From positions 1-11,078 of IMG/VR virus record IMGVR_UViG_3300035698_006061: a stretch of 11,078 nucleotides of DNA; one strand, written 5' to 3'. The stretch is from a virus. How positions within the stretch are numbered: position 1 is the first letter of the stretch; every line of letters starts with the position of its first letter. Below, piece after piece: positions 1 through 11,078 of this stretch. Both the position numbers and the translations under genes were made by a program. The notes below the pieces were generated by a model. It was given only the letters and a program-made list of their open reading frames with translations. It was not told the origin of the DNA and ran no database searches.

Positions 1-127
1 ACTATAGCAGAAATTGTTCTTCCAATCCATCCACCTATAATACATGTTGGTTTGCATCCTCCAGCGTGTAGTGGAAGTCTATGGCAGTATTCGCATGGTT
101 TAGTTATTTCTTTCATTTTGTTTTTCA
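1..127. repeat. Terminal overlap, copy A: exact duplicate of 10952-11078, defining a 10,951-bp closed unit
   Basis: Base-by-base comparison of both ends: actatagcagaaattgttcttcc...ctttcattttgtttttca is present at both. 1-116 is therefore the same DNA as the 5' part of the 72-aa gene at 10849-11067, not a second gene. Confidence 0.95.
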
Positions 128-192
128 ATTCTGTCCATGTTCACCTCCCTTTTTTAATGTATCTTGGAAGTTTGATAATCTTCTAGCTTCTC
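119..192. repeat. 74-bp perfect direct repeat, copy A (partner 10814-10887)
   Basis: tgtttttcaattctgtccatgttcacctcccttttttaatgtatcttggaagtttgataatcttctagcttctc occurs at both sites; mismatches flank both ends (118 vs 10813, 193 vs 10888). On the minus strand it carries an SD (GGGAGGTGA), an ATG and 6 codons (MDRIEK). Confidence 0.95.
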
Positions 193-517
193 TCTGTTCC
201 TTGTTAAGTATAACATGGCAGTCGTGGCAGACAAAAACGAATTCATCAGTTAGCACGGGTTTCGTTATATGGTGGTGTTCTGTTGCTTTACAGCCACATT
301 TTACACATAATGCACCCTTGAATGGATATTTTTGCCTTGTTAGCCTCTTTATTATCCTCTCTTTTCTAGCTTCAGGTCGTTTTTCGCTTGCATAGTTGTT
401 TGCTTTTTGACTAGCTTGTGCCTGTGCAATACGTTCTTCCCGATGTGCCATGTAATATAATCTTCCATATATTCTTCTTCGTTCCTTTTGAGCTTCTGTT
501 ATTATTCTTTTATTCAT
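125..517 (-). CDS. HNH-family endonuclease (phage terminase-associated type)
   Basis: 130-aa ORF with CVKCGCKATEHHHI...VFVCHDCH, i.e. CxxC...HH...CxxCH, the zinc-coordinating HNH pattern. Basic N-terminus. SD GGAGGT lies 6 nt upstream, and ATGA overlaps the preceding stop. On the circle it sits just upstream of terL, as HNH genes do in HK97-like cos phages. Confidence 0.7.
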   Translation of the reverse strand: MNKRIITEAQKERRRIYGRLYYMAHREERIAQAQASQKANNYASEKRPEARKERIIKRLTRQKYPFKGALCVKCGCKATEHHHITKPVLTDEFVFVCHDCHVILNKEQREARRLSNFQDTLKKGGEHGQN

Positions 518-768
518 CTTATAACCTCCATTTTAAGTTCATTGATAAGGTCGCATATTTTCTTGCCTTTCTCTGTTAAGCATACATCTCTATGCCTTCC
601 TGCTCTGTTTGACTCTACTAAACCCATATCTTCTAAGCCTTCTACTAGCCTGTAGACTGTTGTATTGATTACTCCAATCTTTTTTGAAACTTTAATTAAA
701 GATAGCTCTGGAGTTTTCTTTATCTCGTTTAAGAGTCTTGCAATGTTTACATTAATTAGAGTTAGCAT
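514..768 (-). CDS. Winged helix-turn-helix transcription regulator (MarR/ArsR-like)
   Basis: 84-aa ORF. HTH plus wing pattern: LIKVSKKIGVINTTVYRLVEGLEDMGLVESNRAGRHRDVCLTEKG. Its start overlaps the end of the upstream RHH gene. Confidence 0.75.
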   Translation of the reverse strand: MLTLINVNIARLLNEIKKTPELSLIKVSKKIGVINTTVYRLVEGLEDMGLVESNRAGRHRDVCLTEKGKKICDLINELKMEVIR

Positions 769-1178
769 TCTTCTTCCTTGGCTTGTTTAATTAAATCTGT
801 GTAGTGTATTCCTGTCATCTTGCTCCAAACCTTAGCAGGGCCAATAACGTCTTTCTTTTCTTCAAGTAATCTTCTAAGTGCTATCATTGCTTTGAATGTA
901 TTTACTTTTAGACTCTCTTGTTCACTTACTTCGTTCTTCTCTGCAATTGCTAACATTTTTAACCAATGCTCTTCTTTAGCAGCTACTCTTTCTTTTTCGA
1001 TTTCGATTTCTTTTATCTTCATAGTAATCTTATCTACCTTCTGTTCTCCATCCTGCATGTCTGCATCTATAAGAGCTTGCTGTATAAACTTACTGAAGTT
1101 GAAACCTGCTATTGTAGTTTTTCTACTAGCGAGAATTTCTTCCACGTGTTCGTTTAATGTAATACTGTGTGTAACCAT
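762..1178 (-). CDS. Ribbon-helix-helix (CopG/Arc-like) DNA-binding protein with a coiled-coil C-terminal extension
   Basis: Start placed at internal Met43 of the 180-aa track ORF (MVTHSITLNEHVEEILASRKTT...FSKFIQQALID, a strand-helix-helix pattern). The 42 residues upstream translate AT-rich promoter DNA (IYILVYTKVCIFLLIYAY). A TATA-like box lies 21 nt upstream of this ATG. Confidence 0.6.
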   Translation of the reverse strand: MVTHSITLNEHVEEILASRKTTIAGFNFSKFIQQALIDADMQDGEQKVDKITMKIKEIEIEKERVAAKEEHWLKMLAIAEKNEVSEQESLKVNTFKAMIALRRLLEEKKDVIGPAKVWSKMTGIHYTDLIKQAKEEEC

Positions 1179-1199
1179 AATTAAACTAAAAGAAACTCC

Positions 1200-1206
1200 T
1201 TTATAA
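1200..1206 (-). promoter_or_regulatory. TATA/box-A-like element for the RHH-wHTH-HNH operon
   Basis: The minus strand reads ccTTATAAA-21 nt-ATG(1178). An AAGGAG lies 17 nt from the ATG, probably too far for an SD. The geometry fits an archaeal TATA about 25 nt upstream of a leaderless or short-leader start. Confidence 0.4.
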
Positions 1207-1434
1207 GGATATGCATAAATTAATAGAAATATACATACCTTTGTATATACTAGTATGTATATGCTTTCTAGTTTCAATTTGAACCTACCCTTTAACCCTA
1301 ACACTTACTAACCTGTGTATATATCTCTATATATAGGTATATCCTCATTTGAGTACATATGTATCTATATAAGTTACTATATACCTATATACTCCCTATT
1401 CTATTCTTTAAAGAATATGTATATCTCTTTTTTT

Positions 1435-1489
1435 TATATATATATATATAATATATATATATATTATAATAATAATAATAATAATAATA
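1435..1489. repeat. Compound microsatellite: (TA)8 then (AT)7 then (ATA)8
   Basis: Read directly: 1435-1450 TA repeats, 1451-1464 AT repeats with a phase shift, and 1466-1489 eight ATA units. Confidence 0.9.
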
Positions 1490-1579
1490 GTAAGTAGCCT
1501 CTCAGCTCGAAAACTCGCTGTTTAGTAACTCCTCTCTCAGAGTCATGTCTTTTCATTCCTAAAGGTGCGGGAAGTCGGG

Positions 1580-1614
1580 CTCTGCTTTAGCGAGTCTATG
1601 CGAGTATTGCAGAG
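1580..1614. repeat. Hairpin presenting a double GCGAG motif
   Basis: CTCTGC (1580-1585) pairs with GCAGAG (1609-1614). The 23-nt loop is TTTAGCGAGTCTATGCGAGTATT, containing GCGAG-N5-GCGAG. Confidence 0.6.
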
Positions 1615-1786
1615 ATTAGACTGACACGGTTGTCTTGGATTATATTAAAGGGTGGAAATATTATAAAAAATTTCTCTATGAGTCTTTTTTTTTATGAAAA
1701 ATTTCTTGGAGAGTCGAGATTTAACAAAACTAAATACCACTAATAACCGCTAAGAACTACAACTACATACATACATACTACTAAAT

Positions 1787-1808
1787 ATGGGCGACCAACA
1801 TAGCCCAT
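1787..1808. repeat. GC-stem hairpin, GGGC-N10-GCCC family member
   Basis: ATGGGC (1787-1792) pairs with GCCCAT (1803-1808), with the 10-nt loop GACCAACATA. Confidence 0.6.
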
Positions 1809-1888
1809 GTATACATATACATATAATCATACTACTATTACTAACTCCAAATCTCATACATTCAATCAATACTAATACATACACTATT

Positions 1889-1918
1889 AGCCCTCTAAGG
1901 GGCGAGTATGCGAGCCCC
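1889..1918. repeat. Iteron/hairpin unit 1: AGCCCTCTAAGGGGCGAGTATGCGAGCCCC
   Basis: GGGGC (1899-1903) pairs with GCCCC (1914-1918) around the 10-nt loop GAGTATGCGA. Alternatively, GCCC (1890-1893) can pair with GGGC (1900-1903). Contains GCGAG-TAT-GCGAG. Confidence 0.75.
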
Positions 1919-1960
1919 ATATATATTTACTTAACTAATTAATACTTTAAATAACTAATA

Positions 1961-1988
1961 AGCCTCTAAGGGCGAGTATGCGAGCCCT
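1961..1988. repeat. Iteron/hairpin unit 2: AGCCTCTAAGGGCGAGTATGCGAGCCCT
   Basis: Near-identical to unit 1 and 72 bp downstream. Each of the three C/G runs is one base shorter than in unit 1. The stem is AGGGC/GCCCT with the same 10-nt loop. Confidence 0.75.
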
Positions 1989-2160
1989 GTAGTACATTAT
2001 ACTAACTTTATTAATAAGATTGATTAGAGAGGCTCCTAGACCCCTTAGATATTCCTTTAGAGTAGAGGTGTATGGGAGTATGATATAAAGACTAAAGTAG
2101 AATTTCTATGAAATTCTAATATCAGGGGAATATATAAACACTGCTATATTTCTTTGTAAT

Positions 2161-2176
2161 AAAGGAAATATCCTTT
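2161..2176. promoter_or_regulatory. Perfect palindrome AAAGGA-AATA-TCCTTT (candidate operator)
   Basis: 6-bp arms and a 4-bp spacer, read directly. Related GGAAATAT / GGAATAT strings occur at about 1654 and 2126. Confidence 0.3.
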
Positions 2177-2302
2177 AATTTAATATTGTTAGTATTGTAC
2201 TATGGTAATAGAATTGGTTGGTGGTCAAAAGTGAGGAAAATTCAATCTAAACACTTACATAGTCATGTATATAGGTAAGGATATAAGTAATGATATAAGT
2301 AC

Positions 2303-2767
2303 TTAAGCAAAAGTAGCATCAAATATAATAGTGCCATCAAGTGTAGCTGTATCAATAGTATGATTAGTATAAGTAAGTACAAGTGTTTGTGTACCTTTGT
2401 CAGTAGTTACTGTTTGTTGAGTTATGTCTGTACCTGTATAAGTAATGGTAGATGTGGCAACTGAAACACCTTTTAATGACCATGTAATACTTTGCATGAA
2501 ACCACCTGAATATGTTGGTTCTGCCTTATCATATAAAGGTAAGTCAAATATTTCATTATTATTAGCATATTCTTTGTTAACTATGTCTTTATTTTTTGAT
2601 GGTTCTTCCTGTACTGTACCTTGTTTTATTGCAATAGAGTGGACAATATTCTTATCATCCATGTTATCAAAGTTACCTGCTCCTTGAGGTCTATGCATAC
2701 CATCTCGTTTCTTAGCATTGCTAGCTTTAAACATTGTCTTAAATGGGTCTTTAGGTGCTCGTGCCAT
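2303..2767 (-). CDS. Hypothetical beta-rich virion protein (candidate fibre/receptor-binding or tail-associated)
   Basis: Start placed at Met18 of the 171-aa track ORF (MARAPKDPFK...) because the upstream codons overlap the 57-aa gene. The C-terminal half is T/S/V/I-rich with alternating beta-like pattern (ITYTGTDITQQTVTTDKGTQTLVLTYTNHTIDTATLDGTIIFDATFA). Last gene of the structural block. Confidence 0.5.
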   Translation of the reverse strand: MARAPKDPFKTMFKASNAKKRDGMHRPQGAGNFDNMDDKNIVHSIAIKQGTVQEEPSKNKDIVNKEYANNNEIFDLPLYDKAEPTYSGGFMQSITWSLKGVSVATSTITYTGTDITQQTVTTDKGTQTLVLTYTNHTIDTATLDGTIIFDATFA

Positions 2768-2775
2768 AAGAATAA

Positions 2776-2949
2776 TTAAGCTGCAGAAGAAATTGTCTCG
2801 TAAGCTGAGCCAGTCCAAACTTTCAACTTGTTAGTTGTAGAATCATAGAAAACTGTACCTGTTTGAGGTGCTGCTGGTAAAGCTGTAGTAACCAATCTTG
2901 GTGCAACGAATGCGCTAGGCATTACAATATCACCGATAACTTCTGTCAT
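2776..2949 (-). CDS. 57-aa protein with a fibre-like motif (not in the supplied ORF track)
   Basis: Hand translation: MTEVIGDIVMPSAFVAPRLVTTALPAAPQTGTVFYDSTTNKLKVWTGSAYETISSAA. SD GGAGGT lies 6 nt upstream of the ATG at 2949; the TAA stop is at 2776-2778. Confidence 0.55.
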   Translation of the reverse strand: MTEVIGDIVMPSAFVAPRLVTTALPAAPQTGTVFYDSTTNKLKVWTGSAYETISSAA

Positions 2950-2988
2950 TATGCTACCTCCATTATAGCTTTAATTGTCTTAGAATTC

Positions 2989-2994
2989 AAAAAA
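2989..2994 (-). terminator. Oligo-T (T6) run immediately after the capsid gene stop
   Basis: The minus strand reads TAA-TGAGTAC-TTTTTT-GAATTC. Oligo-T tracts are the established archaeal intrinsic termination signal. There is no preceding hairpin, so it is not a bacterial rho-independent terminator. Confidence 0.35.
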
Positions 2995-3001
2995 GTACTC
3001 A

Positions 3002-3862
3002 TTATGCCTGAGTGTTCGTAATCTTGTAAATAGCTGCAGGGTCTGTAACCTGAACATGGCCAATTTCCCAAGAACGAACTGTGAAATTTATTCCTTTGTC
3101 TTCAACTACTGCACTTGTTAATGGTGTAGCTGCTCTCCATGTAGCTGCTCTTTGTCCAATAACTATTAATGCTTCATCTGCTGTTACACTTGTTGAGACA
3201 ATAATTGTTAATCCAGCAACTTGTCCAACTCTTCCGTTAGAAACAACATCTGCTGTCTTAAAACTTGGATTGTTGATAACTTTGCTGTTCATCATTAAAT
3301 TTCTGTAATCTTTTGGGCTTAATAAAAGGTATCCGTTCATTAAAGCATCGTAATTGCTCTCGAATAATGTTTGTTCACCTGTTAGAATGTCTCTGATAGG
3401 GTCTCTATCTGTTGCTGTTGCATCATCCCAGTTTGCTACTGCTGCTGCAGTTGAAATACCGTCAGCTCCTGATAATGTTGTATAAATATATGAATCTACT
3501 TGGCTAGCAATACTTCTTGCTACTCTTAAGATTGTTCTTGCTTGTACATCGATAGCATCTGTAAGCTTATCTTCTAAGAAAATAGTACCTTCTGCTGCGA
3601 ACTTAATGTTTTGTCCTTGTACTTTAGTCCAACTTGGGTCTACGTGTGGAAATGCAGCTCCTCTTGCTACTCCTTGTACACTAACTCCTTCACCTGTTGC
3701 AGATAATTCAGTTGCTGTTTCTCTGTAATAAGTTTCTGTCCATTTAGAACTAGATTGATTAAGCAATACTTGCTTCATTTTGAATTGTTTTAAAGCAAAT
3801 CCTTTAACTGCTCTTTCAACATTTTCTCCTCGAATATCTACCATTCCATTACTATCAGCCAT
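3002..3862 (-). CDS. Major capsid protein (HK97-fold type, no delta domain)
   Basis: 286-aa ORF directly after the scaffold-like and decoration-like genes. A/T/V/G-rich and Cys-free. SD-like GAGGGTGA upstream. Assigned from position, size and composition, not from a named motif. Confidence 0.7.
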   Translation of the reverse strand: MADSNGMVDIRGENVERAVKGFALKQFKMKQVLLNQSSSKWTETYYRETATELSATGEGVSVQGVARGAAFPHVDPSWTKVQGQNIKFAAEGTIFLEDKLTDAIDVQARTILRVARSIASQVDSYIYTTLSGADGISTAAAVANWDDATATDRDPIRDILTGEQTLFESNYDALMNGYLLLSPKDYRNLMMNSKVINNPSFKTADVVSNGRVGQVAGLTIIVSTSVTADEALIVIGQRAATWRAATPLTSAVVEDKGINFTVRSWEIGHVQVTDPAAIYKITNTQA

Positions 3863-3863
3863 C

Positions 3864-4259
3864 TTAACACTTCACCCTCACTAATATTGACTCACTGGTT
3901 GTTCCAGATTGTCTAGCGTATCCTACTACTTCTTTTAATCCTGCTGCTGTAGCGTCATCTGCTAATGTTACTGTGTTAACTCCAGAAATTTTAAGTGGGT
4001 CACCTGCTGTAACTGTAGCACTTACTACCATCTCGTAAATTCCATCGTTAGAATAAGTTAATTTTGTAGAATCATCAGCACTGTCTTTTTCCATTGTAGC
4101 AATTCCTAGTGGTATTTCACCATCTGCAGAACTAGCTGAACCTGTGTTAGGGTCTGTTAATTGTAAAAGAGTTCCTTTAGCAATTGTAACTCCTGCTGCT
4201 ACTGTACATTCTGGAAATCTGTCTTGTAGCTGAGTACTTAATGTTGCTTCGTTTGCCAT
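3864..4259 (-). CDS. Head decoration / capsid cement protein (DUF2190-like)
   Basis: 131 aa. Pattern AAGVTIAKGTLLQL...GIATME...GIYEMVV...VTAGDPLKISG...VVGYARQ...ILVRV matches the small beta-barrel DUF2190 pattern as I recall it. Sits immediately upstream of the MCP. Confidence 0.55.
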   Translation of the reverse strand: MANEATLSTQLQDRFPECTVAAGVTIAKGTLLQLTDPNTGSASSADGEIPLGIATMEKDSADDSTKLTYSNDGIYEMVVSATVTAGDPLKISGVNTVTLADDATAAGLKEVVGYARQSGTTSESILVRVKC

Positions 4260-4283
4260 TATAATTAAATTAAATAAAAATAG

Positions 4284-4290
4284 TTTATAA
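4284..4290 (-). promoter_or_regulatory. TATA/box-A-like element for the decoration-MCP unit
   Basis: The minus strand reads ccTTATAAA-24 nt-ATG(4259). No SD precedes the ATG. It has the same ccTTATAAA core as the site at 1200-1206. Confidence 0.4.
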
Positions 4291-4302
4291 GGATTGCTAT
4301 AA

Positions 4303-4467
4303 CTAATCCTCTTTTTCTTCTGTTTCGGGCTCTTCAGGGCACTTTTCTAGTGCTTTCTCAAAAGCTGCGATAACAATCTCGTGAATTGCAATACCTTCAG
4401 TGTGTGCTAAAAGTGCTGCTTTAGATGCTTCAAGTTCCCTTAGAATTGATGTTCTAGATAAATCCAT
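4303..4467 (-). CDS. 54-aa acidic helical protein (not in the supplied ORF track)
   Basis: Hand translation: MDLSRTSILRELEASKAALLAHTEGIAIHEIVIAAFEKALEKCPEEPETEEKED. Its ATG overlaps the end of the scaffold-like ORF by 14 nt. It fills an otherwise empty 190-nt gap. Confidence 0.45.
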   Translation of the reverse strand: MDLSRTSILRELEASKAALLAHTEGIAIHEIVIAAFEKALEKCPEEPETEEKED

Positions 4468-4783
4468 CTGCTGCTAATGGGTTTACTTCACCTAACATTA
4501 GTTTCTCTGCAAATTCTTCATCAGTTAAAGGTCTGTCTTCTTCTTTATTCATGCCTGCTTCTGCTCTACCACCTAGAATGTTTCTTGCTTGGAGTGCTTC
4601 TGTTCTATCGTTCTGTATTCTTAGTGCCTCTGAGGCTTTCTCAATCCTTTCAGCTGCATCGTTTGCGGCTTCAAGCACAGGAGTTGTCTGCTGCTGAATC
4701 CTTTCATTGCTATTTTCAACTGCTCTTTCTGCTGGTTGTTCAGTTTTTTGTGTTTCATTTTCTTCCATTTGTACTACCTCCAT
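4454..4783 (-). CDS. Scaffolding-like protein
   Basis: 109 aa, highly charged and predicted helical (E/Q/A/R-rich). Sits upstream of the decoration and MCP genes. Strong SD GGAGGT 7 nt upstream. No protease gene is present, consistent with a separate scaffold. Confidence 0.5.
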   Translation of the reverse strand: MEVVQMEENETQKTEQPAERAVENSNERIQQQTTPVLEAANDAAERIEKASEALRIQNDRTEALQARNILGGRAEAGMNKEEDRPLTDEEFAEKLMLGEVNPLAADGFI

Positions 4784-4800
4784 TATATTACTAATAAGTT

Positions 4801-6036
4801 TTAGAATAAGCCAAAGTTCAAAGCACTCTTACCGTATTCTTCTTGCTTTACTATCTTTGTATCCAGTCCATATTTAATTAATATTGCTAGTTCCTCTGGT
4901 GTTAGAATATTACCTGCGTTTCTCTTTCGGATTGCTTCAAATAATAATGTTCTTTCTTGGAACTCAGTATCATCTTCTGCATCACTTCTCTCTTGTCCAG
5001 ATTTGAAAGCCTCATCTCTAGCAGTTTGTTTCTCTGCGAAGGCTTGGTCTCTAGTATTACTTTCTTCTCTCAACCTATCAAACTTACTTGCTGTTGTTTC
5101 CTGTGATTCTGATACTAACCTCATGTTCTCGTTAGCTGTTACTAAATTGTTTTCCACTGTGCTTCTGAATTGTTTACCAAATGGCCATAGTGCTGGGTTA
5201 ACTATTGTGTTAATCTTTGTGAATTTAAGTGCTCCTTCAATAATCTGTATCTGTCCTTGCATTTGCTCTATAGCATCTGCTCTTGTTATCTCGTTGTTAT
5301 CAAATCTATCTAATATCTTAGATGTATAGAAGCTTGCTGCTGATGCACCATTGTCTGCTGCTAACCATTGTGTTAATGTACTACCACCAACATATGTACC
5401 TATTGCTACTGTAAGTTGTTTCTTTGTTAATCCAATGAATGTTTTCTTTGTTGCGATGATTGCTAGGTCTTTAGCTGCTTGTTGAATTGCTATTTTGTTT
5501 ACTTCTGCCTGTAAGTATGATGGGTTAATTCCTAACTTAGCTGCTTCTGCTGCTACTTTACTTGAACTTGCTGCTCCACCAGTTGTTATTAAACCTTTGA
5601 TTGCTGTAATTCCTGCACTTGTTGCTAATACTGCTGTAGCTGCTACTGCTGTACTTATTAGTGTTGTACCTATTACTTTTCTTGCTTCATCTGTATCACC
5701 TCCTCTAATATTTGCTCTACTCTCTGATACTGCATCTGCTCCAGCTCTTATTCCTTCTGTAAATGTAGTTTTTGGTTGGCTTAATGGTGCTGATAGTATA
5801 TCTAATGCTCTAGCTCCACCTCTCTTTAACTTATCTCCGAATGTTGGTGCCTCTGTAGTACTGATTGGTTGCTTAGATGCTCTAGATACAGCTGAACTTG
5901 GACTTCCACTAACGCTACCTGGACTGATTGCACTGCCTGCTTTAGGTGTACTAGTTGTAGTTGTCTTCTTTGCTCCTGGCATTTCTCCTCTTATAAATCT
6001 CTTTCCTATACTCTTAAGTTTACTTAAAATTCCCAT
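4801..6036 (-). CDS. 411-aa virion-associated protein (candidate internal/ejection or tape-measure-like protein)
   Basis: Start placed at Met21 (MGILSKLKS...), whose ATG overlaps the stop of the 50-aa gene (TAATG). It has an S/T/P-rich N-terminal third, a central A/T/G/I hydrophobic stretch (VIGTTLISTAVAATAVLATSAGITAIKGLITTGGAA) and a charged helical C-terminus. Confidence 0.55.
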   Translation of the reverse strand: MGILSKLKSIGKRFIRGEMPGAKKTTTTSTPKAGSAISPGSVSGSPSSAVSRASKQPISTTEAPTFGDKLKRGGARALDILSAPLSQPKTTFTEGIRAGADAVSESRANIRGGDTDEARKVIGTTLISTAVAATAVLATSAGITAIKGLITTGGAASSSKVAAEAAKLGINPSYLQAEVNKIAIQQAAKDLAIIATKKTFIGLTKKQLTVAIGTYVGGSTLTQWLAADNGASAASFYTSKILDRFDNNEITRADAIEQMQGQIQIIEGALKFTKINTIVNPALWPFGKQFRSTVENNLVTANENMRLVSESQETTASKFDRLREESNTRDQAFAEKQTARDEAFKSGQERSDAEDDTEFQERTLLFEAIRKRNAGNILTPEELAILIKYGLDTKIVKQEEYGKSALNFGLF

Positions 6037-6188
6037 TATAATAATATTCCCGCAATTATTGCTAGTGTTATTGTGATTGCTGTTGTACACATCCACCTGT
6101 TAAGTTTAACTTTACCATTAGTCTGTATTACATGTTTTTCTATTTCACATATCTTATCATAGATTTCTCTGTTTGTTACTGTTACCAT
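6036..6188 (-). CDS. 50-aa C-terminally membrane-anchored protein (not in the supplied ORF track)
   Basis: Hand translation: MVTVTNREIYDKICEIEKHVIQTNGKVKLNRWMCTTAITITLAIIAGILL. TAATG overlaps occur at both ends (with the portal stop and with the start of the 411-aa gene). Confidence 0.5.
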   Translation of the reverse strand: MVTVTNREIYDKICEIEKHVIQTNGKVKLNRWMCTTAITITLAIIAGILL

Positions 6189-7279
6189 TATTGTCCAACT
6201 CCTGCTTGTGTATCATTAGGCTGTGCTGCCTTCGTTGGTCCATCTTTAGCATTGTCGCTTAATAGTTCGTTTTCTAAACTTGCTGGGAATACTAAATCAA
6301 TATCCATACCTAGTTGTATACCAACTTGTTCCTCAATGAATGTTTGGTCTTCTTCTACACTCTGTTGGAATGCAAGATAAACTATCTTAGCACTTGCTTC
6401 TGTAAAGTTCTTTGAGTTTCCTACTATAATCTTTGGTGTTGCACATGCCTCGTAGAAAGAATCGTTAAGTGAATCAATCCATGTTAGTGGGTTTAATGTA
6501 CTATTAGGGCTTACGCTTAATTGTTCTGGAACTACTGCTCCCTTTGGTACATATAAGTTTTCATTTAACTTGTAAGCTTTATCCATCTTTGTTTTGAATG
6601 CTGTAATCTTAGCTGGTACATCTGTATCTAAGTGGAATATCATTCTTGGATATACATTTCTATGCATTACTATCTTGTAATCTGCTATTGCTTCATTTCT
6701 TGCTAAAATTATATCTTCTAGTTTTTCAACCACACTTACTCCATGAATCTCATCTGCTACTCTGTTACGACTTAAGTGAAATATTTCCTCTTGTTGGAAT
6801 GTTTTAGTACCACCATTTTTTGTTTTACTAACTTGTTCGTATTTCTGAATTATCCCTTTGTTGTTTGCCACAATCAGTATAGCTCCTGTATCAAGCACCT
6901 TTAGATTTATTAAATTGCCTTCTTCGTCTCTGATGATTTCTGCATAAGAATCTCCTCCAATCCACATAGTTCTAATCATATTTTCTATAATTGTATTAAA
7001 TGTATCTCTACCATAGCCTTTAATCTGGTCTATAACAAGTTGTGTATCTGTATCTGTTTCAATTCCTTTACCTATTGTCCATGTAGCTCTAGCATCAATT
7101 GTACTGTTTAGCTCTGGTATTTGTTTGTAGTATCCGAAATATTTTGACCAATTTGATTGTTGCCACCTTGTTTCTTTTTCCCCAGTTGCTGCATCTGTGT
7201 TCATTATAGATACACTGTAATCTGTCATCTGATTTGTTAAATCACTTATTACTGTATTTCCTATATCGTTATCTGCCAT
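6188..7279 (-). CDS. Portal protein (HK97/SPP1-type family)
   Basis: 363-aa ORF. Its size, the central segment EEIFHLSRNRVADEIHGVSVVEKLEDIILARNEA and the polar/acidic C-terminal tail are typical of phage portals. It lies in the head module with terL and the MCP. Confidence 0.8.
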   Translation of the reverse strand: MADNDIGNTVISDLTNQMTDYSVSIMNTDAATGEKETRWQQSNWSKYFGYYKQIPELNSTIDARATWTIGKGIETDTDTQLVIDQIKGYGRDTFNTIIENMIRTMWIGGDSYAEIIRDEEGNLINLKVLDTGAILIVANNKGIIQKYEQVSKTKNGGTKTFQQEEIFHLSRNRVADEIHGVSVVEKLEDIILARNEAIADYKIVMHRNVYPRMIFHLDTDVPAKITAFKTKMDKAYKLNENLYVPKGAVVPEQLSVSPNSTLNPLTWIDSLNDSFYEACATPKIIVGNSKNFTEASAKIVYLAFQQSVEEDQTFIEEQVGIQLGMDIDLVFPASLENELLSDNAKDGPTKAAQPNDTQAGVGQ

Positions 7280-7497
7280 TAATCAAACATATCCTTTATG
7301 TCTTGTAACATTCTTTCTGTCTCTGGTATGTGAGCTGTTACTGCCAAATTTAATTGTCTTACTTTGTATGCGCTTAATTCTTGCTCTGTTTTGATATACA
7401 TAGTCTTATCCTCAATCCTTAATCCAAGGTTACCTACACCTGCTTCATAAATTAATTGTGCTAAGTTCACTGTTGTTAAGTCGTATTTGTATTCCAT
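7279..7497 (-). CDS. Hypothetical 72-aa protein
   Basis: ORF with SD AGGAG about 10 nt upstream and TAATG junctions at both ends. No recognisable motif. Confidence 0.55.
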   Translation of the reverse strand: MEYKYDLTTVNLAQLIYEAGVGNLGLRIEDKTMYIKTEQELSAYKVRQLNLAVTAHIPETERMLQDIKDMFD

Positions 7498-7787
7498 TAT
7501 AATTGTACTCCTGTTAGTCTTGTTACTGCTGGCATTTGACTTGTTTTAATTTTAAAATCTGTAATATTTTTTATTTCATTATCTATACTATTTTTAACTT
7601 TTAAAAGTATTTCTGTATTATCCATATCTGATGGGAATGAAAATCCATATACTTTGTCTTTAATTATATTTTCTGTTTTATCTAAACCAAAAATAATTGT
7701 ATCTACAAAAGTATCTCCAGTGTTTGTTAGCCTAACTGATACTTTTCTTCTCATACTTTCATCTTTGTCTTCTATTATTGTTATCAT
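7497..7787 (-). CDS. Hypothetical 96-aa protein
   Basis: ORF with SD-like GGTGGAG upstream and TAATG junctions at both ends. No recognisable motif. Confidence 0.55.
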   Translation of the reverse strand: MITIIEDKDESMRRKVSVRLTNTGDTFVDTIIFGLDKTENIIKDKVYGFSFPSDMDNTEILLKVKNSIDNEIKNITDFKIKTSQMPAVTRLTGVQL

Positions 7788-8362
7788 TAGTTAAACTCCA
7801 CCACTGTAAACCATACTGTAGTCTCATCATCGTGTACATTAACTGTTACTGTATCAGCTGCTGATAAAAATGCATTATAACTAGATGATTGTGTAAATGT
7901 ACTTGATTCATCTGGTGAGGTAGCTCCTTGAACAAAACACATTGCTTTACTTGTATCAACTGTAGTTATTGTATAGTCTCCATCATTTAATAAATGTCCA
8001 AGTTGTTTTGAACTTACAACTCCAGCTATATATTCTATAACCATATAACTTACATTACAAGTATTATAATCATTAATTCTTGAAGCTGTTACTGTTGTTT
8101 CATCTGTTAACGTAAGTTTGCATAATGTATCAGCTGGTCTTGAAGCACCATGAGTATTACCATTGAAAACTACAACTGAATTCTCTGTAACTACTGCATC
8201 TATTGTTGCTGTATTTGAAGTACTACTTACCGCAATTACTCCGTGCTGTATTGATTGTATAATTGTATCACTTGCTGCTTTAGGTGTACTAGTTGTGTTT
8301 AATGAGTTTGTTTCCCTTACATCATCTTGGCCGAATAATCCACCTGGTATACTTAGAACCAT
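7787..8362 (-). CDS. 191-aa beta-rich protein with internal tandem duplication (candidate tail/receptor-binding protein)
   Basis: Two homologous halves: SIQHG...ATIDAV...VVVFNG...TVTASR...NVSYMVIEY and SKQLG...TITTVD...MCFVQG...TVTVNV...TVWFTVVEF. SD-like GGTGA lies 3 nt upstream. Confidence 0.6.
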   Translation of the reverse strand: MVLSIPGGLFGQDDVRETNSLNTTSTPKAASDTIIQSIQHGVIAVSSTSNTATIDAVVTENSVVVFNGNTHGASRPADTLCKLTLTDETTVTASRINDYNTCNVSYMVIEYIAGVVSSKQLGHLLNDGDYTITTVDTSKAMCFVQGATSPDESSTFTQSSSYNAFLSAADTVTVNVHDDETTVWFTVVEFN

Positions 8363-8802
8363 TTTTTCACCGCCAATTCTTTATTTAAAATAGGAAGTAA
8401 TCCTTCACGTCTTTGTCCAAATGGACTTGCTTGTCCTGCTCTTACACTTGCATCGTTCATATTTATACCTTGACTTATAATTTCTCCAATTAATCTACCA
8501 AATTTACCTACTCTGTTATCTGGGTCAATACCTACTTCTATAGTTTCTCCTTCAATTTGATTTCTTAGCCAATCTCCTGAATCTTTTCCACCTTCACTTA
8601 ATTCTTTAGCATCTATTCTAGCAAATCTAATAGGGAAGTTAAATTCTCTAAAGTTTGTACTTACTGTAATTGTATCTCCATCATGAACCTTCTCTACTCT
8701 TGCTTCAAAGTTCCCTACTATCTGTTTATGTGGGCTTTCGAAGTAGAATTCATTCATTTGAGCATTAGTTAGCTCAGGAAACGCTTTAAAATCATGCTCC
8801 AT
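8353..8802 (-). CDS. Staphylococcal-nuclease-like (thermonuclease/SNase fold) nuclease
   Basis: 149 aa. VHDGDTITV...IRFARIDAKE...GKFGRLIGEI...MNDASVRAGQA mirrors the SNase signature (DGDT...R-L-x-G-I-D-A-P-E...Y-G-R-x-L-A...N-x-x-L-V-x-x-G-x-A). Confidence 0.8.
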   Translation of the reverse strand: MEHDFKAFPELTNAQMNEFYFESPHKQIVGNFEARVEKVHDGDTITVSTNFREFNFPIRFARIDAKELSEGGKDSGDWLRNQIEGETIEVGIDPDNRVGKFGRLIGEIISQGINMNDASVRAGQASPFGQRREGLLPILNKELAVKKWF

Positions 8803-9157
8803 TTATGAAGTCCTGTTGTCGTTTATCTCTTAGCAAGCTAAGTCCTCTTAAAGAACTGTCTCTTAATACATTAATCATGTCTTCTGCCTCAATACGTGAG
8901 TTATATCCAGTCATATCGTACTGAATTACGTAAATTGCTGCTAAATCACTAGCTATTTGGGTCAAAATCTGCCTTACATCTGTGTTTAATGTAGTATATG
9001 CATCACTAAAATTAAATCTACAAACTGCATTGATTGTACTCTCTGCTTGACCTACAAAATCGTTAATAAAAGCCTCTGTATTAGACACCACGCTAGCTCC
9101 TGCACCTACTTTTTGCTGTACTTGTGCTGTTGTTGCGAATATTCCTGTGTCTGCCAT
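8792..9157 (-). CDS. Head-tail connector/adaptor-like protein (gp6-like), tentative
   Basis: 121 aa. An N-terminal helical pattern (TEAFINDFVGQAESTINAVCRFNF) resembles HK97 gp6-like connectors. First gene after terL. Assignment is by weak pattern and context only. Confidence 0.4.
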   Translation of the reverse strand: MADTGIFATTAQVQQKVGAGASVVSNTEAFINDFVGQAESTINAVCRFNFSDAYTTLNTDVRQILTQIASDLAAIYVIQYDMTGYNSRIEAEDMINVLRDSSLRGLSLLRDKRQQDFINGA

Positions 9158-9178
9158 TGTGAAATTTGGCCTTTAAAG

Positions 9179-9186
9179 TATATAAA
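9179..9186 (-). promoter_or_regulatory. Box-A/TATA element TTTATATA upstream of the connector-to-scaffold gene block
   Basis: The minus strand reads TTTATATA-21 nt-ATG(9157), with no SD before the ATG. TTTATATA fits the published methanogen box-A consensus TTTAWATA. Confidence 0.4.
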
Positions 9187-9197
9187 GACTGCTATAA

Positions 9198-10478
9198 TTA
9201 GTACACATATATGTTTAATGTCTGGTCTTTGACGCACCAAGCGCCTCTGACGATACCATCTGCAATATGCATATAATTACCAAAGTATTTAGTTCCCATA
9301 TTTGATTTCTCGTACTGCACTGACTTGAGCGACATGAAGATTTCTGGGTCATCAAGTAGTTTTATTTCACCACGTTCCATCAATGCTAGTAAGTTATTGT
9401 AGATGTCTTCCTTTAGTACTCTCTTTTTTCTCTTTTCATCGTAAGTTAGTGGTCTATTCATGTTATTTATAGCTACTGTCTTTCGTTTTGTCTCATCTGT
9501 AGTAAGTAATTGGTCTAGAACTCCGACTCCCATTCCACCATCATCAATGAATATTTGTCTAAAGTCATATGCTTTGTCTAAATTGATAATATGTCTTGTA
9601 GTTTCTGTAGTTAGAGTTTGTTTTGTAATTTGATTCTCTACTTGTTCTATAGCTTTTGGGTTTGTACGGTCAAATACTTCAAAAGTACTTTCATCTTTTC
9701 CCATTCTTGCTATGTCCACTCCTAAGTAGTAACGCTTTCCTTGTTGTATATAACCTCTACGCTTCAAACACATACATCTTTTGATTAAATCATCTGGGAA
9801 AACTTGTCTTAATGAATCTATAAAGGCTCCTTCATATTCTTGAGCATACTGAGTTACTGTCATTCTTCCTCTTTCTCTAGCTAAATGCTCTAATGCCTTC
9901 TCTTTCTGTAATTGTGTCCAACTATCTGTGATTTCTCTCTCATTTATCACTGTTTCACTACTTATTTGGAAGTTAGTAAAGTTTGTATCGTGAAATGCTC
10001 TGTGAAAGAAGCCTGAATTTCCATGTGGGGTTGATAATAGTACAATATCTCCACCTGTTGTAAGTAACATTGGTGTAATTGCTTCCCATACTAGTTCTGG
10101 TACAAAGGCTGCCTCATCTGCATATAGTCTACTTACTGTGAAACCTCTGATACCATGGCCATCTAAGCCCGTAGGAAGGCATCTAATGACACTTTTGTTG
10201 TTTAACTTGACCTTTGATAGTGTTGGTTTGTCTTTTCCTTTCATTATGTATGATTTATAGTTGTCTTGTAAGTACCACATAGTCTTTTGGAATAACTCTT
10301 GTGCTTGTCTTTCTACAGAAGCTATGATTAAAATGCTGGAACCTGGGTTCAAGGCGGCATAATCAGCTGCATCTTTCGCTATTACAGTTGACTTGCCTAC
10401 CTGTCGCCCTGAGCAAAGAACAATATTGCCTTTTGTTTCTAGGACTTTCTCTTGCCATTTATCTAATTTGATTTTCAT
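9198..10478 (-). CDS. terL: Terminase large subunit (packaging ATPase + nuclease)
   Basis: 426 aa. Deviant Walker A LCSGRQVGKST (compare T4 gp17 SRQLGKT). Walker B with catalytic Glu: RLYADEAAF. C-terminal RNase-H-like acidic motifs: YLGVDIARMGKDES and IFIDDGGMGVG. Confidence 0.92.
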   Translation of the reverse strand: MKIKLDKWQEKVLETKGNIVLCSGRQVGKSTVIAKDAADYAALNPGSSILIIASVERQAQELFQKTMWYLQDNYKSYIMKGKDKPTLSKVKLNNKSVIRCLPTGLDGHGIRGFTVSRLYADEAAFVPELVWEAITPMLLTTGGDIVLLSTPHGNSGFFHRAFHDTNFTNFQISSETVINEREITDSWTQLQKEKALEHLARERGRMTVTQYAQEYEGAFIDSLRQVFPDDLIKRCMCLKRRGYIQQGKRYYLGVDIARMGKDESTFEVFDRTNPKAIEQVENQITKQTLTTETTRHIINLDKAYDFRQIFIDDGGMGVGVLDQLLTTDETKRKTVAINNMNRPLTYDEKRKKRVLKEDIYNNLLALMERGEIKLLDDPEIFMSLKSVQYEKSNMGTKYFGNYMHIADGIVRGAWCVKDQTLNIYVY

Positions 10479-10487
10479 GAGTATGAA

Positions 10488-10505
10488 GTCCCCTTCAATG
10501 GGGAC
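10488..10505. repeat. Hairpin repeat H2: GTCCCC-TTCAAT-GGGGAC
   Basis: 6-bp GC-rich stem. The 17-nt string tatgaagtccccttcaa (10482-10498) is identical to 10651-10667. Confidence 0.85.
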
Positions 10506-10532
10506 AAATTGATTTAGTAGACTTCTCTACAA

Positions 10533-10597
10533 TACACACGGCAGGATTCGAACCTGCAATAGTCCTACGGGAATGACCCGTCCAGTTCCTCGTGTGT
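10533..10597 (-). ncRNA. tRNA-like element: perfect acceptor stem and T-arm, truncated core
   Basis: Minus strand: ACACACG-N33-GCAGG-TTCGAAT-CCTGC-CGTGTGT-A. It has a 7-bp acceptor stem, a canonical 5-bp T-stem and a GTTCGAATC T-loop. Only 33 nt lie where positions 8-48 need about 41. The core folds either as ACGGG-TCATT-CCCGT (CAT centred in a too-small loop) or as GGAA-N12-TTCC (D-arm-like), not both. No encoded CCA. Confidence 0.5.
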
Positions 10598-10656
10598 AAT
10601 CAATGAGGGCTTTAAGCTTCCATTTACGGAAGTCCCACACCCTCGATGACTATGAA

Positions 10657-10679
10657 GTCCCCTTCAAAAAAATGGGGAC
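10657..10679 (-). terminator. Hairpin repeat H1 with an internal T7 run: GTCCCC-ATTTTTTTGAA-GGGGAC (minus strand)
   Basis: Begins 8 nt after the stop of the 48-aa gene. T7 is a strong archaeal-type oligo-T terminator. The T-run lies in the loop, not after the stem, so it is atypical for a bacterial intrinsic terminator. Confidence 0.4.
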
Positions 10680-10686
10680 GATTAAT

Positions 10687-10833
10687 TTAATCTGTTTTGT
10701 TTGTGTACTTGTGCACTAGTTCTTTTGCAATAGCATATCTCTTTAAAGAGTCGTTTAATCCTACTTCAAAGAATTTTACTGTCACAAGTATCTCTTTTAC
10801 AGTTGTTCTAAGCTGTTTTTCAATTCTGTCCAT
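10687..10833 (-). CDS. 48-aa hypothetical protein (not in the supplied ORF track)
   Basis: Hand translation: MDRIEKQLRTTVKEILVTVKFFEVGLNDSLKRYAIAKELVHKYTNKTD. A strong SD GGGAGGTGA lies immediately upstream of the ATG at 10833. Its RBS and first 6 codons lie inside the 74-bp repeat. Confidence 0.5.
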   Translation of the reverse strand: MDRIEKQLRTTVKEILVTVKFFEVGLNDSLKRYAIAKELVHKYTNKTD

Positions 10834-10887
10834 GTTCACCTCCCTTTTTTAATGTATCTTGGAAGTTTGATAATCTTCTAGCTTCTC
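10814..10887. repeat. 74-bp perfect direct repeat, copy B
   Basis: Identical to 119-192. The two copies lie 256 bp apart on the circle and bracket the 72-aa gene. Confidence 0.95.
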
Positions 10888-11067
10888 CTTCTTTAATTTA
10901 TTAAGTGATTCGCTTAATGTTTTCATAGCATCTAGACTATGTTCTAACATTACTATAGCAGAAATTGTTCTTCCAATCCATCCACCTATAATACATGTTG
11001 GTTTGCATCCTCCAGCGTGTAGTGGAAGTCTATGGCAGTATTCGCATGGTTTAGTTATTTCTTTCAT
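10849..11067 (-). CDS. 72-aa Cys-rich protein (CxxC...CxxxC) with a hydrophobic segment and a helical tail
   Basis: MKEITKPCEYCHRLPLHAGGCKPTCIIGGWIGRTISAIVML...KLKKEKLEDYQTSKIH. It has no SD of its own. Its ATG lies inside a 12-codon uORF that starts at the repeat-borne ATG (position 138, copy A). The last 13 codons are encoded by repeat copy B. Confidence 0.55.
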   Translation of the reverse strand: MKEITKPCEYCHRLPLHAGGCKPTCIIGGWIGRTISAIVMLEHSLDAMKTLSESLNKLKKEKLEDYQTSKIH

Positions 11068-11078
11068 TTTGTTTTTCA
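10952..11078. repeat. Terminal overlap, copy B (identical to 1-127)
   Basis: Offset of 10951 between the copies. The 127-bp length matches a common de Bruijn k-mer, so it signals circular closure of the assembly rather than proving a physical terminal repeat. Confidence 0.95.

Follow-up and report, generated by a model that had tools for sequence, protein, structure and literature searches.

Results

The stretch of DNA analyzed here is the whole of the IMG/VR virus record IMGVR_UViG_3300035698_006061, 11,078 nt in length (hereafter the window). We find that it is very probably the complete genome of a very small virus with an HK97-type major capsid protein (MCP), a portal protein, and a terminase, which infects an archaeon and expresses the first cistrons of its gene blocks as leaderless messages from TATA-driven promoters. 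The window has a G+C content of ~35% and carries ~20 open reading frames (ORFs), all on the minus strand. Because the same 127 nt stand at both ends, the unit genome is 10,951 bp; the assembly is circular, circularly permuted, or of the direct terminal repeat (DTR) type. Three gene blocks begin with g4 (ATG at 9157), g14 (4259), and g18 (1178). An earlier note on this sequence had placed TATA-like boxes 21, 24, and 21 nt ahead of the ATGs at 1178, 4259, and 9157, none of which has a Shine–Dalgarno (SD) sequence, and had argued from an archaeal expression architecture to an archaeal host. All three boxes are where it put them. The archaeal assignment is supported as well, and it is the relatives of the virus, rather than the window alone, that decide it.

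TATA boxes at a fixed distance from start codons across a virus family

A 5.8-billion-protein collection holds 576 clusters of homologues of the MCP and 954 of g4, and the longest contigs that encode them are almost all between 10 and 13.5 kb; the one contig of 15.8 kb is a concatemer. For comparison we used 83 related loci, with MCP identities of 42 to 80%. The relatives come from TARA Oceans, from Loki's Castle sediment, and from many JGI and ENA metagenomes, and they share a core composed of MCP, portal, g14, TerL, g4, and g12.

On the gene strand of these loci, the exact motif TTTAWATA occurs 256 times. The first ATG after it follows at 21 nt in 89 cases and at 22 nt in 19, together 108 of the 256 boxes, the spacing in the family being measured to the ATG and not to a mapped transcript start. 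ORFs of at least 50 aa are opened by 90 of these 108 ATGs. On the opposite strand, used as a control, 7 of 158 boxes have an ATG at 21 to 22 nt. The same offset emerges when 1064 ORF starts are taken as the anchor, with the box ending 21 nt before 143 starts and 22 nt before 35, against ~10 at each of the other offsets.

Alignment of 83 unique sites yields a logo with A, G/C, A, A, A at positions −36 to −32, TTTAAATA at −29 to −22, TT at −20/−19, enrichment of T at −11/−10, and a pyrimidine at −1 in 74 of the 83, where +1 is the A of the ATG. Judged by its sequence, this arrangement appears to be the textbook archaeal core promoter, composed of a transcription factor B recognition element (BRE), a TATA box, a promoter proximal element (PPE), and an initiator. 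In archaea, a TATA box of ~8 bp is centered near −27, with the BRE near −33, the PPE near −10, and a pyrimidine at −1, and leaderless mRNAs arise mainly from single genes and from the first genes of operons (PMC5316973). Because the family logo fits this published layout, the start point of transcription would fall on the A of the start codon.

TATA boxes and SD sequences mark different starts. SD 5-mers peak 6 to 9 nt before the remaining ORF starts, and a TATA box and an SD precede the same start in 5 instances, compared with 37 expected. The phasing also recurs at orthologous genes: TTTAWATA with at most one mismatch lies at 21 or 22 nt upstream of g14 in 35 of 56 relatives, and a box lies at this distance from g4 in 15 of 46.

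Several further observations concern the start regions of the family. The last codons of the TerL gene (...KDKSLNIYIY*) contain the g4 promoter (aaagTTTAAATA) in many relatives. The corresponding TerL codons of the window no longer form a box, and a separate TTTATATA is present in the 40-nt spacer past the TerL stop (9158–9200). Because this box replaces the one embedded in TerL, the g4 promoter appears to have been relocated in the window. One subclade (L069–L073, and also L023) has no start with a TATA box at 21 or 22 nt, and almost all of its genes are SD-led. Each of the genomes L069–L073 has zero to two strong intergenic BRE/TATA matches on the gene strand (e.g., cgaaacaTTTATATAgtag), followed by noncoding leaders of 55 to 500 nt and SD-led genes. 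Within one and the same virus family, expression thus follows two strategies, and the subclade perhaps has hosts of another group. Finally, most of the conserved gene starts family-wide have GCA or GCT (Ala) as their second codon, in the window those at 9157, 4259, 7279, 3862, and 2767; ATGGC(A/T) is found at ~57 to 71 of the 83 leaderless sites and also at the SD-led starts of the MCP and portal genes.

Comparison with mapped archaeal promoters

The family sites share several elements with the promoters of Sulfolobus spindle-shaped virus 1 (SSV1; T3, T4, T9, and Tind) and with those in Sulfolobus and haloarchaeal transcriptomes: an A/T box of 8 bp whose center is ~26 nt ahead of the start point, an A-rich element directly 5′ of the box, an A/T element at approximately −10, and a pyrimidine–purine step at −1/+1. 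Transcripts from SSV1-type promoters begin at the ATG or 1 nt before it, single or first genes are leaderless, and internal genes use SD sequences. For T3, T4, and T9, the SSV1 record places the mapped start of the transcript 1 nt ahead of the ATG and the end of the box A hexamer 22 to 25 nt upstream of it; the T9 box, CTTTATAA, has a 25-nt spacing and is close to the CTTATAAA of the window. Spacing is tighter in the virus family (21–22 nt) than in SSV1 (22–25 nt from the hexamer). Unlike SSV1-type promoters, the boxes of the window have no recognizable BRE, and two of them are off consensus. The starts of SSV1 were mapped experimentally, whereas the window and its relatives are known here from sequence alone.

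As a positive control, we examined thaumarchaeal contigs (L085–L164) that had been retrieved via the amoA start sequence. A TATA box precedes the amoA ATG in 55 of 55 contigs, mostly 22 to 24 nt away, and for this reason amoA looks leaderless or nearly so. The boxes are TTTATATA, TTAATATA, and similar words, and for amoA and amoX-like genes overall they lie 21 to 25 nt before the ATG. Few ORFs on these contigs are preceded by an SD-like 5-mer. As the loci are orthologous and carry few SDs, we rejected the contigs as a test of host lineage and kept them as a control of the architecture only.

Putative promoters, SD sequences, and oligo-T tracts in the window

All three block starts of the window are ATG, with no SD in the 15 nt upstream of 9157, 4259, or 1178. 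The box of g4 is TTTATATA, and those of g14 and g18 are both CTTATAAA; the two CTTATAAA regions match each other with 70% identity across 57 nt and contain an identical ATCCTTATAAA. Scored with a position weight matrix (PWM) for BRE and TATA derived from the family, the g4 box (9186–9179) is the best site on the gene strand of the window, with 9.2 bits. For boxes with at most one mismatch to TTTAWAWA, the density per position is 0.0067 over the whole genome and 0.020 within the AT-rich spacer, and the probability that at least three of the five spacer-preceded starts would have a box at 21 to 24 nt is ~2 × 10−4 to 4 × 10−3. At the initiator, T occupies −1 for g18 only, and g14 has a T–A step at −4/−3. 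From these positions, transcription of the g4 block is predicted to start at or beside ATG 9157 and that of the g14 block 0 to 3 nt before ATG 4259.

We propose the following expression scheme. The host TATA-binding protein and transcription factor B would bind the TATA boxes (flanked in relatives by an A-rich BRE) 21 to 24 nt upstream of the g4, g14, and g18 ATGs. Because the boxes end at this distance, archaeal RNA polymerase would initiate at the start codons or within 3 nt of them and so produce leaderless mRNAs. The first cistron would be translated from the 5′-terminal AUG and downstream cistrons via GGAGGT or GGTGA SD sequences or via TAATG stop–start overlaps. Oligo-T tracts after the MCP gene and g2 would probably terminate or attenuate transcription.

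The elements that this scheme assigns to internal genes are largely those described in the earlier note. GGAGGT-type SD sequences do serve the starts at 517, 2949, and 10833. The one it had given to ATG 4783 serves ATG 4768: the former, which is the ORF caller's start of g12, is an unlikely start because it overlaps the SD itself (4781–4776), and the true g12 start is most likely ATG 4768, which lies 7 nt past the SD and agrees with the orthologues. Stop–start overlaps of the TAATG/ATGA type are present, as claimed, at five genes (7787, 7497, 7279, 6188, and 6036). The T6 and T7 runs that the note had read as stops are also in place, and each of the three runs of at least six T on the gene strand of the window is intergenic. 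In the relatives, the density of runs of at least five T is only 2.6-fold higher in intergenic DNA than in coding DNA, and A runs show no such excess; conservation of the T6 run itself is considered below.

Which domain of life is the host from?

The promoter architecture argues for a domain-level assignment of the host to Archaea. With respect to lineage, leaderless starts predominate and the consensus is TTTAAATA, a combination closer to the usage of Sulfolobus/TACK-type archaea or haloarchaea than to that of SD-led methanogens; this comparison draws in part on the leaderless fractions in PMC5316973. The earlier note had likened a box to the methanogen box-A consensus, and nothing in the data points specifically to that group. 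A similar correction applies to the regulators adduced in favor of an archaeal virus. The small winged helix-turn-helix (wHTH) protein g19 does match the archaeal-type families TrmB, HVO_A0261_N, and ArnR1-like, a weak argument; the ribbon-helix-helix regulator was not recovered, g18 having no Pfam match. No homologue of g19 was found in the 5.8-billion-protein collection, and we dropped the idea of a host-derived gene on that account. As to the host taxa of the closest homologues, proposed as a check, the best cultured match of TerL is to an archaeal virus, Halogranum tailed virus 1 (27.8% identity), and the genome search described below returned no provirus with the MCP.

A number of results weigh against the reading of the window as an archaeal head-tail virus. 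Its boxes are degenerate: two are CTTATAAA, one has a 24-nt spacing, and none has a clear BRE, the corresponding positions (agcagtc, agcaatc, and gcatatc) matching the family BRE poorly. Shuffled sequence reaches 11.7 bits with the family PWM, more than the best site of the window, and the window by itself therefore cannot carry the archaeal claim. No orthologue of g18 exists among the 83 relatives, which leaves its promoter without comparative support. The T6 run after the MCP gene is kept in 2 of 81 relatives, and we rejected it as a family feature for this reason. A profile search with the MCP found no provirus in 185,579 GTDB species genomes, and the same search returned four free-standing whole virus contigs in metagenome-assembled genomes (MAGs) labeled Paceibacterota, Woesearchaeota, Bacteroidota, and Methanosarcinales. 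Among the accessory genes of the relatives, a few match families better known from bacteria (CcdA and RusA). As for the virion, no ORF matches a capsid maturation protease, and no tail tube, tail fiber, or other tail protein was recognized (Pfam and PHROG). The top PDB fold match of the g4 model (mean predicted local distance difference test score 86.5) is the Mu neck subunit 5ydn, and it is weak (probability 0.87, E 0.4, TM score 0.52–0.57).

Names of homologue clusters add two MAG labels, Heimdallarchaeota (in which the MCP is annotated "encapsulin") and Nitrosopumilus, for a total of four archaeal and two bacterial. The MAG contigs are whole family genomes of ~11 to 12 kb (L003, L004, L005, L006, L007, and L084), and their placement is probably due to mis-binning or contamination. 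Because whole virus genomes are binned by chance, these labels say little about the host. A Pfam scan of 138 cluster representatives of the relatives' accessory genes gave nine single matches, with no archaeal replication hallmark among them. ARAGORN predicted no tRNA in the window or in the 83 relatives.

Were the host bacterial (a low-GC Firmicutes or Mollicutes species, a member of the candidate phyla radiation, or one of the Bacteroidota), the boxes would be −10-like elements or chance AT-rich words ahead of short SD-less leaders. Two of the four MAG bins, the strong GGAGG-type SDs, the CcdA and RusA matches, and PWM scores in the window that do not exceed those of shuffles would all be in keeping with such a host. 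We nevertheless consider it very improbable. The bins are uninformative for the reason given above, and the family box is fixed at −29 to −22 from the ATG, adjoins an A-rich BRE, has no −35 element, and is followed by Y(−1)A(+1); its consensus, TTTAAATA, is a poor TATAAT. Sites that resemble σ70 promoters (−35/−10 with 16–18 nt between them) number 40 in the window, compared with 39.9 ± 7.2 in shuffles, and a scan of the window found none before any of the three gene blocks. Intrinsic-terminator-like sites are not enriched (3, with 4.5 ± 2.5 expected). Box-offset profiles of Mycoplasma P1, Pelagibacter HTVC010P, and Bacillus phi29, all of them low-GC phages of bacteria, are flat, without the peak seen in the family. 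The relative L006 uses GGTGA SDs, although Bacteroidota largely lack SD sequences.

A second alternative, unlikely in our estimate, keeps the archaeal host and grants function to only some of the window boxes, for example that at 9186–9179. The CTTATAAA boxes would then be decayed or fortuitous, and their genes would be reached by read-through on a circular or concatemeric template or from an unrecognized promoter in the 1.1-kb spacer. The low scores of these boxes (at most 6.5 bits, without a BRE), the 24-nt spacing at g14, outside the 21 to 22 nt of the family, and the lack of g18 orthologues could be explained in this way. The spacer does contain a TTTATATA at 2138–2131 and other TATA-like words, and L069–L073 run almost the whole genome from one or two promoters with long leaders. 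Decay or chance is harder to reconcile with the likeness of the two CTTATAAA regions over 57 nt, including the identical ATCCTTATAAA, and with their location in the only sizeable SD-less gaps before their genes. Moreover, 35 of 56 relatives have a promoter box at the position orthologous to the g14 site, and the T9 promoter of SSV1 has the similar box CTTTATAA at 25 nt.

Genome size, capsid genes, and relation to known viruses

Because a portal and TerL are both present, packaging is expected to proceed through a portal vertex. A look-up with the portal protein of the window returned no entry for that exact sequence. The MCP fold assignment (PF25209, Phage_capsid_4) is by sequence profile only. 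By its modeled fold, g4 is possibly a head-to-tail (neck) adaptor; a profile search of PDB sequences with g4 gave no match. The window was also searched for other functions, and no TerS was recognized in it and no replication or lysis gene (Pfam and PHROG). The earlier note had suggested an exceptionally small archaeal virus of the head-tail type. The small size (10.95 kb) is confirmed, as are the MCP, portal, and TerL; the head-tail nature is partly evident from portal and TerL, and a tail is only hinted at, given that no tail protein was identified and the neck match is weak.

A tblastn search of 50,697 records of phages and archaeal viruses with the MCP gave no match, and a literature search found no description of this virus family. 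The "twilight" clade of Aguilar and Luque, the Charybdis elements, and the viruses in papers on ANME-1, Asgard, and DPANN archaea were considered and are all other elements. Archaeal Caudoviricetes, namely haloarchaeal tailed viruses (arTVs), verdandiviruses, and NMV2 of an Asgard archaeon, share an HK97-type MCP, portal, and TerL with the window virus. The verdandiviruses and NMV2 are likewise without replication genes of their own, and such genes are commonly absent from small archaeal viruses (10.64898/2026.08.12.739948). Genome sizes differ: 10.95 kb for the window and 10 to 13 kb for its family, compared with 15.7 kbp for NMV2, 19.5 kb for Verda V2, and 35 to 105 kbp for haloarchaeal isolates. 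The window genome is smaller than the smallest archaeal head-tail genomes that we found in the literature. It is also below the lower bound of 11.6 kb for tailed phages, among which Mycoplasma phage P1 has 11.66 kb (Aguilar et al. 2025 preprint).

The "twilight zone" HK97 genomes of the same preprint are similar to the window in size, at or below that bound, and in their DTR-type assembly, and weak encapsulin (Linocin_M18) matches of the MCP in some relatives are a further likeness. The main clade of the preprint, however, comes from the human gut, is temperate, and is without portal and terminase, whereas the window family has both genes, is marine or sedimentary, and has archaeal promoters. 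Mycoplasma phage P1 has a protein-primed polymerase and no TATA phasing, unlike the window family.

The short gene list also raises the question of a nonautonomous capsid-encoding element, either satellite-like or resembling a gene transfer agent, that would depend on a helper virus or on the host for replication and for a tail. No replication, protease, tail, or lysis gene was recognized, and the genome is under the bound of known tailed phages. Such an element is most improbable in our view: the window encodes an MCP, portal, and TerL of its own along with scaffold-like and neck-like proteins, and hundreds of relatives of the same size have terminal repeats or form concatemers in virome-derived IMG/VR contigs. 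Integrated copies were not found in the 185,579 species genomes, and the missing replication genes are what small archaeal viruses commonly show, as cited above.

The promoter biology described here is already known. Of interest is a widespread, apparently undescribed family of very small archaeal HK97 viruses to which the window would belong. A more far-reaching proposal, to which we give an even chance, is that the window represents an undescribed global lineage, at the level of an order or a family, of the smallest portal/terminase HK97 viruses (10–13 kb), with archaeal hosts, a genome made up almost wholly of leaderless operons, and a TATA-to-AUG phasing precise to one nucleotide that could serve as a host marker. 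The hosts would then be archaea from the sea or from sediment that have yet to be cultured, for example Nitrososphaeria, DPANN, or Asgard. If these assignments are correct, hundreds of public contigs of ~11 kb would be archaeal viruses, several of which now sit in bacterial or archaeal MAGs or have no host label, and family contigs would contaminate MAGs of at least six phylum labels. In genome size, these viruses would undercut every archaeal head-tail virus described so far as well as the smallest tailed phage in culture, which would bear on the "missing" small tailed viruses and on the minimal gene number of a portal/terminase virus. TATA boxes 21 or 22 nt before an ATG, mutually exclusive with SD sequences, would then offer a domain-level host signal that can be read where CRISPR and provirus evidence is absent.

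Features of the genome

Table 1. Features of the window, with coordinates on the 11,078-nt stretch
Feature	Coordinates	Strand	Details
Terminal direct repeat	1..127		Same letters as 10952–11078; the 15.8-kb relative L001 is a concatemer with a genome unit of ~11.9 kb
g20, Cys/His-rich, HNH-like	125..517	-	Third gene of the g18-g19-g20 block
g19, small wHTH protein	514..768	-	Pfam DUF6293_C, IclR, TrmB, HVO_A0261_N, ArnR1-like
SD GGAGGT for internal gene g20 (ATG 517)	524..529	-	Read from the sequence
g18, 138 aa, first cistron of the regulatory block, predicted leaderless	762..1178	-	No SD
Noncoding AT-rich region, 1.1 kb	1179..2302		Upstream of the g18 promoter; (TA)n, (AAT)n, short repeats
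TATA-like box ccTTATAAA (box CTTATAAA), putative promoter of g18-g19-g20	1200..1207	-	Ends 21 nt before ATG 1178
SD GGAGGT for g16 (ATG 2949)	2956..2961	-	Read from the sequence
T6 run, candidate archaeal oligo-T terminator or attenuator	2989..2994	-	8 nt past the MCP stop
HK97-type MCP, internal cistron	3002..3862	-	PF25209, E 1.5e-12; 576 homologue clusters; start 1 nt past the g14 stop, behind GAGGGTGA
g14, cement/scaffold-like, first cistron of the capsid block, predicted leaderless	3864..4259	-	PF09956, E 2e-5; phrog_673 head scaffolding, E 3e-6; no SD
TATA-like box ccTTATAAA (box CTTATAAA), putative promoter of the g14-MCP block	4284..4291	-	Ends 24 nt before ATG 4259; 6.5 bits
SD GGAGGT for g12 (likely ATG 4768)	4776..4781	-	Orthologues: aaGGAGGT, 7–8 nt, ATGGAT
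Portal protein, internal cistron	6188..7279	-	PF04860, E 8.7e-11; start overlaps the upstream stop (TAATG)
g5, SNase-like nuclease	8353..8802	-	phrog_452
g4, conserved helical protein of 121 aa, first cistron of its block, predicted leaderless, possible neck adaptor	8792..9157	-	No SD; 954 homologue clusters
TATA box TTTATATA, putative promoter of the block g4 to g13 (neck-like protein, nuclease, portal, others)	9179..9186	-	Ends 21 nt before ATG 9157
TerL, large terminase subunit	9198..10478	-	PF03237, E 2.6e-11
T7 run past g2, candidate terminator	10666..10672	-	In the loop of the hairpin GTCCCC/GGGGAC
SD GGGAGGTG for g2 (ATG 10833)	10837..10844	-	Read from the sequence

Two genes of the window resemble nucleases (Table 1). 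In g20, the motif CVKCGC...HHH...CHDCH resembles that of HNH endonucleases, with no Pfam match; on the circular map, the gene is located two small genes upstream of TerL, like the HNH–terminase pairing of cos phages. The endonuclease g5, which is like staphylococcal nuclease, is conserved in the virus family.

The spacer between g2 and TerL (10477–10680, minus strand) contains a tRNA-like element at 10597–10533. Its acceptor stem of 7 bp (ACACACG/CGTGTGT plus A) and its T-arm (GCAGG-TTCGAAT-CCTGC) are both perfect, and it has a short anticodon-like hairpin; it starts with A1 and has no D-arm. The score with the Rfam tRNA model is 25.7 bits, short of the gathering threshold (29), and ARAGORN reports nothing here. 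Two copies of the GTCCCC/GGGGAC hairpin repeat flank the element, and the 212-nt g2–TerL spacer folds at z = −4.9. The relative L047 has the same T-arm at 7690–7800, with a different, mostly compensating acceptor pairing. The element is possibly an RNA-processing signal. An attachment site derived from a host tRNA was also considered and judged unlikely in light of the A1 start, the missing D-arm, the subthreshold Rfam score, and the lack of an integrase.

An exact direct repeat of 74 nt is present at 119–192 and 10814–10887, the copies being separated by 256 nt on the circular map. The repeated sequence includes the end of a gene, the SD GGGAGGTGA, and an ATG that encodes MDRIEKQ. The copy at 119–192 makes a mini-ORF of 12 codons that overlaps the start of g1 (ATG 116, equivalent to 11067). 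The repeat may be a recent duplication, or it may provide translational coupling for g1.

The region 1179–2302 contains no ORF, gives no Rfam match, and has only low-complexity similarity to relatives. It is made up in part of (TA)n and of (AAT)n at ~1437–1490, with many GTATAT/ATATAC words. Two copies of AGCC(C)TCTAAGGG(G)CGAGTATGCGAGCCC lie at 1892–1918 and 1962–1988, and the TTTATATA box at 2138–2131 lies within the same region, which is a candidate for a replication origin or a noncoding RNA locus.

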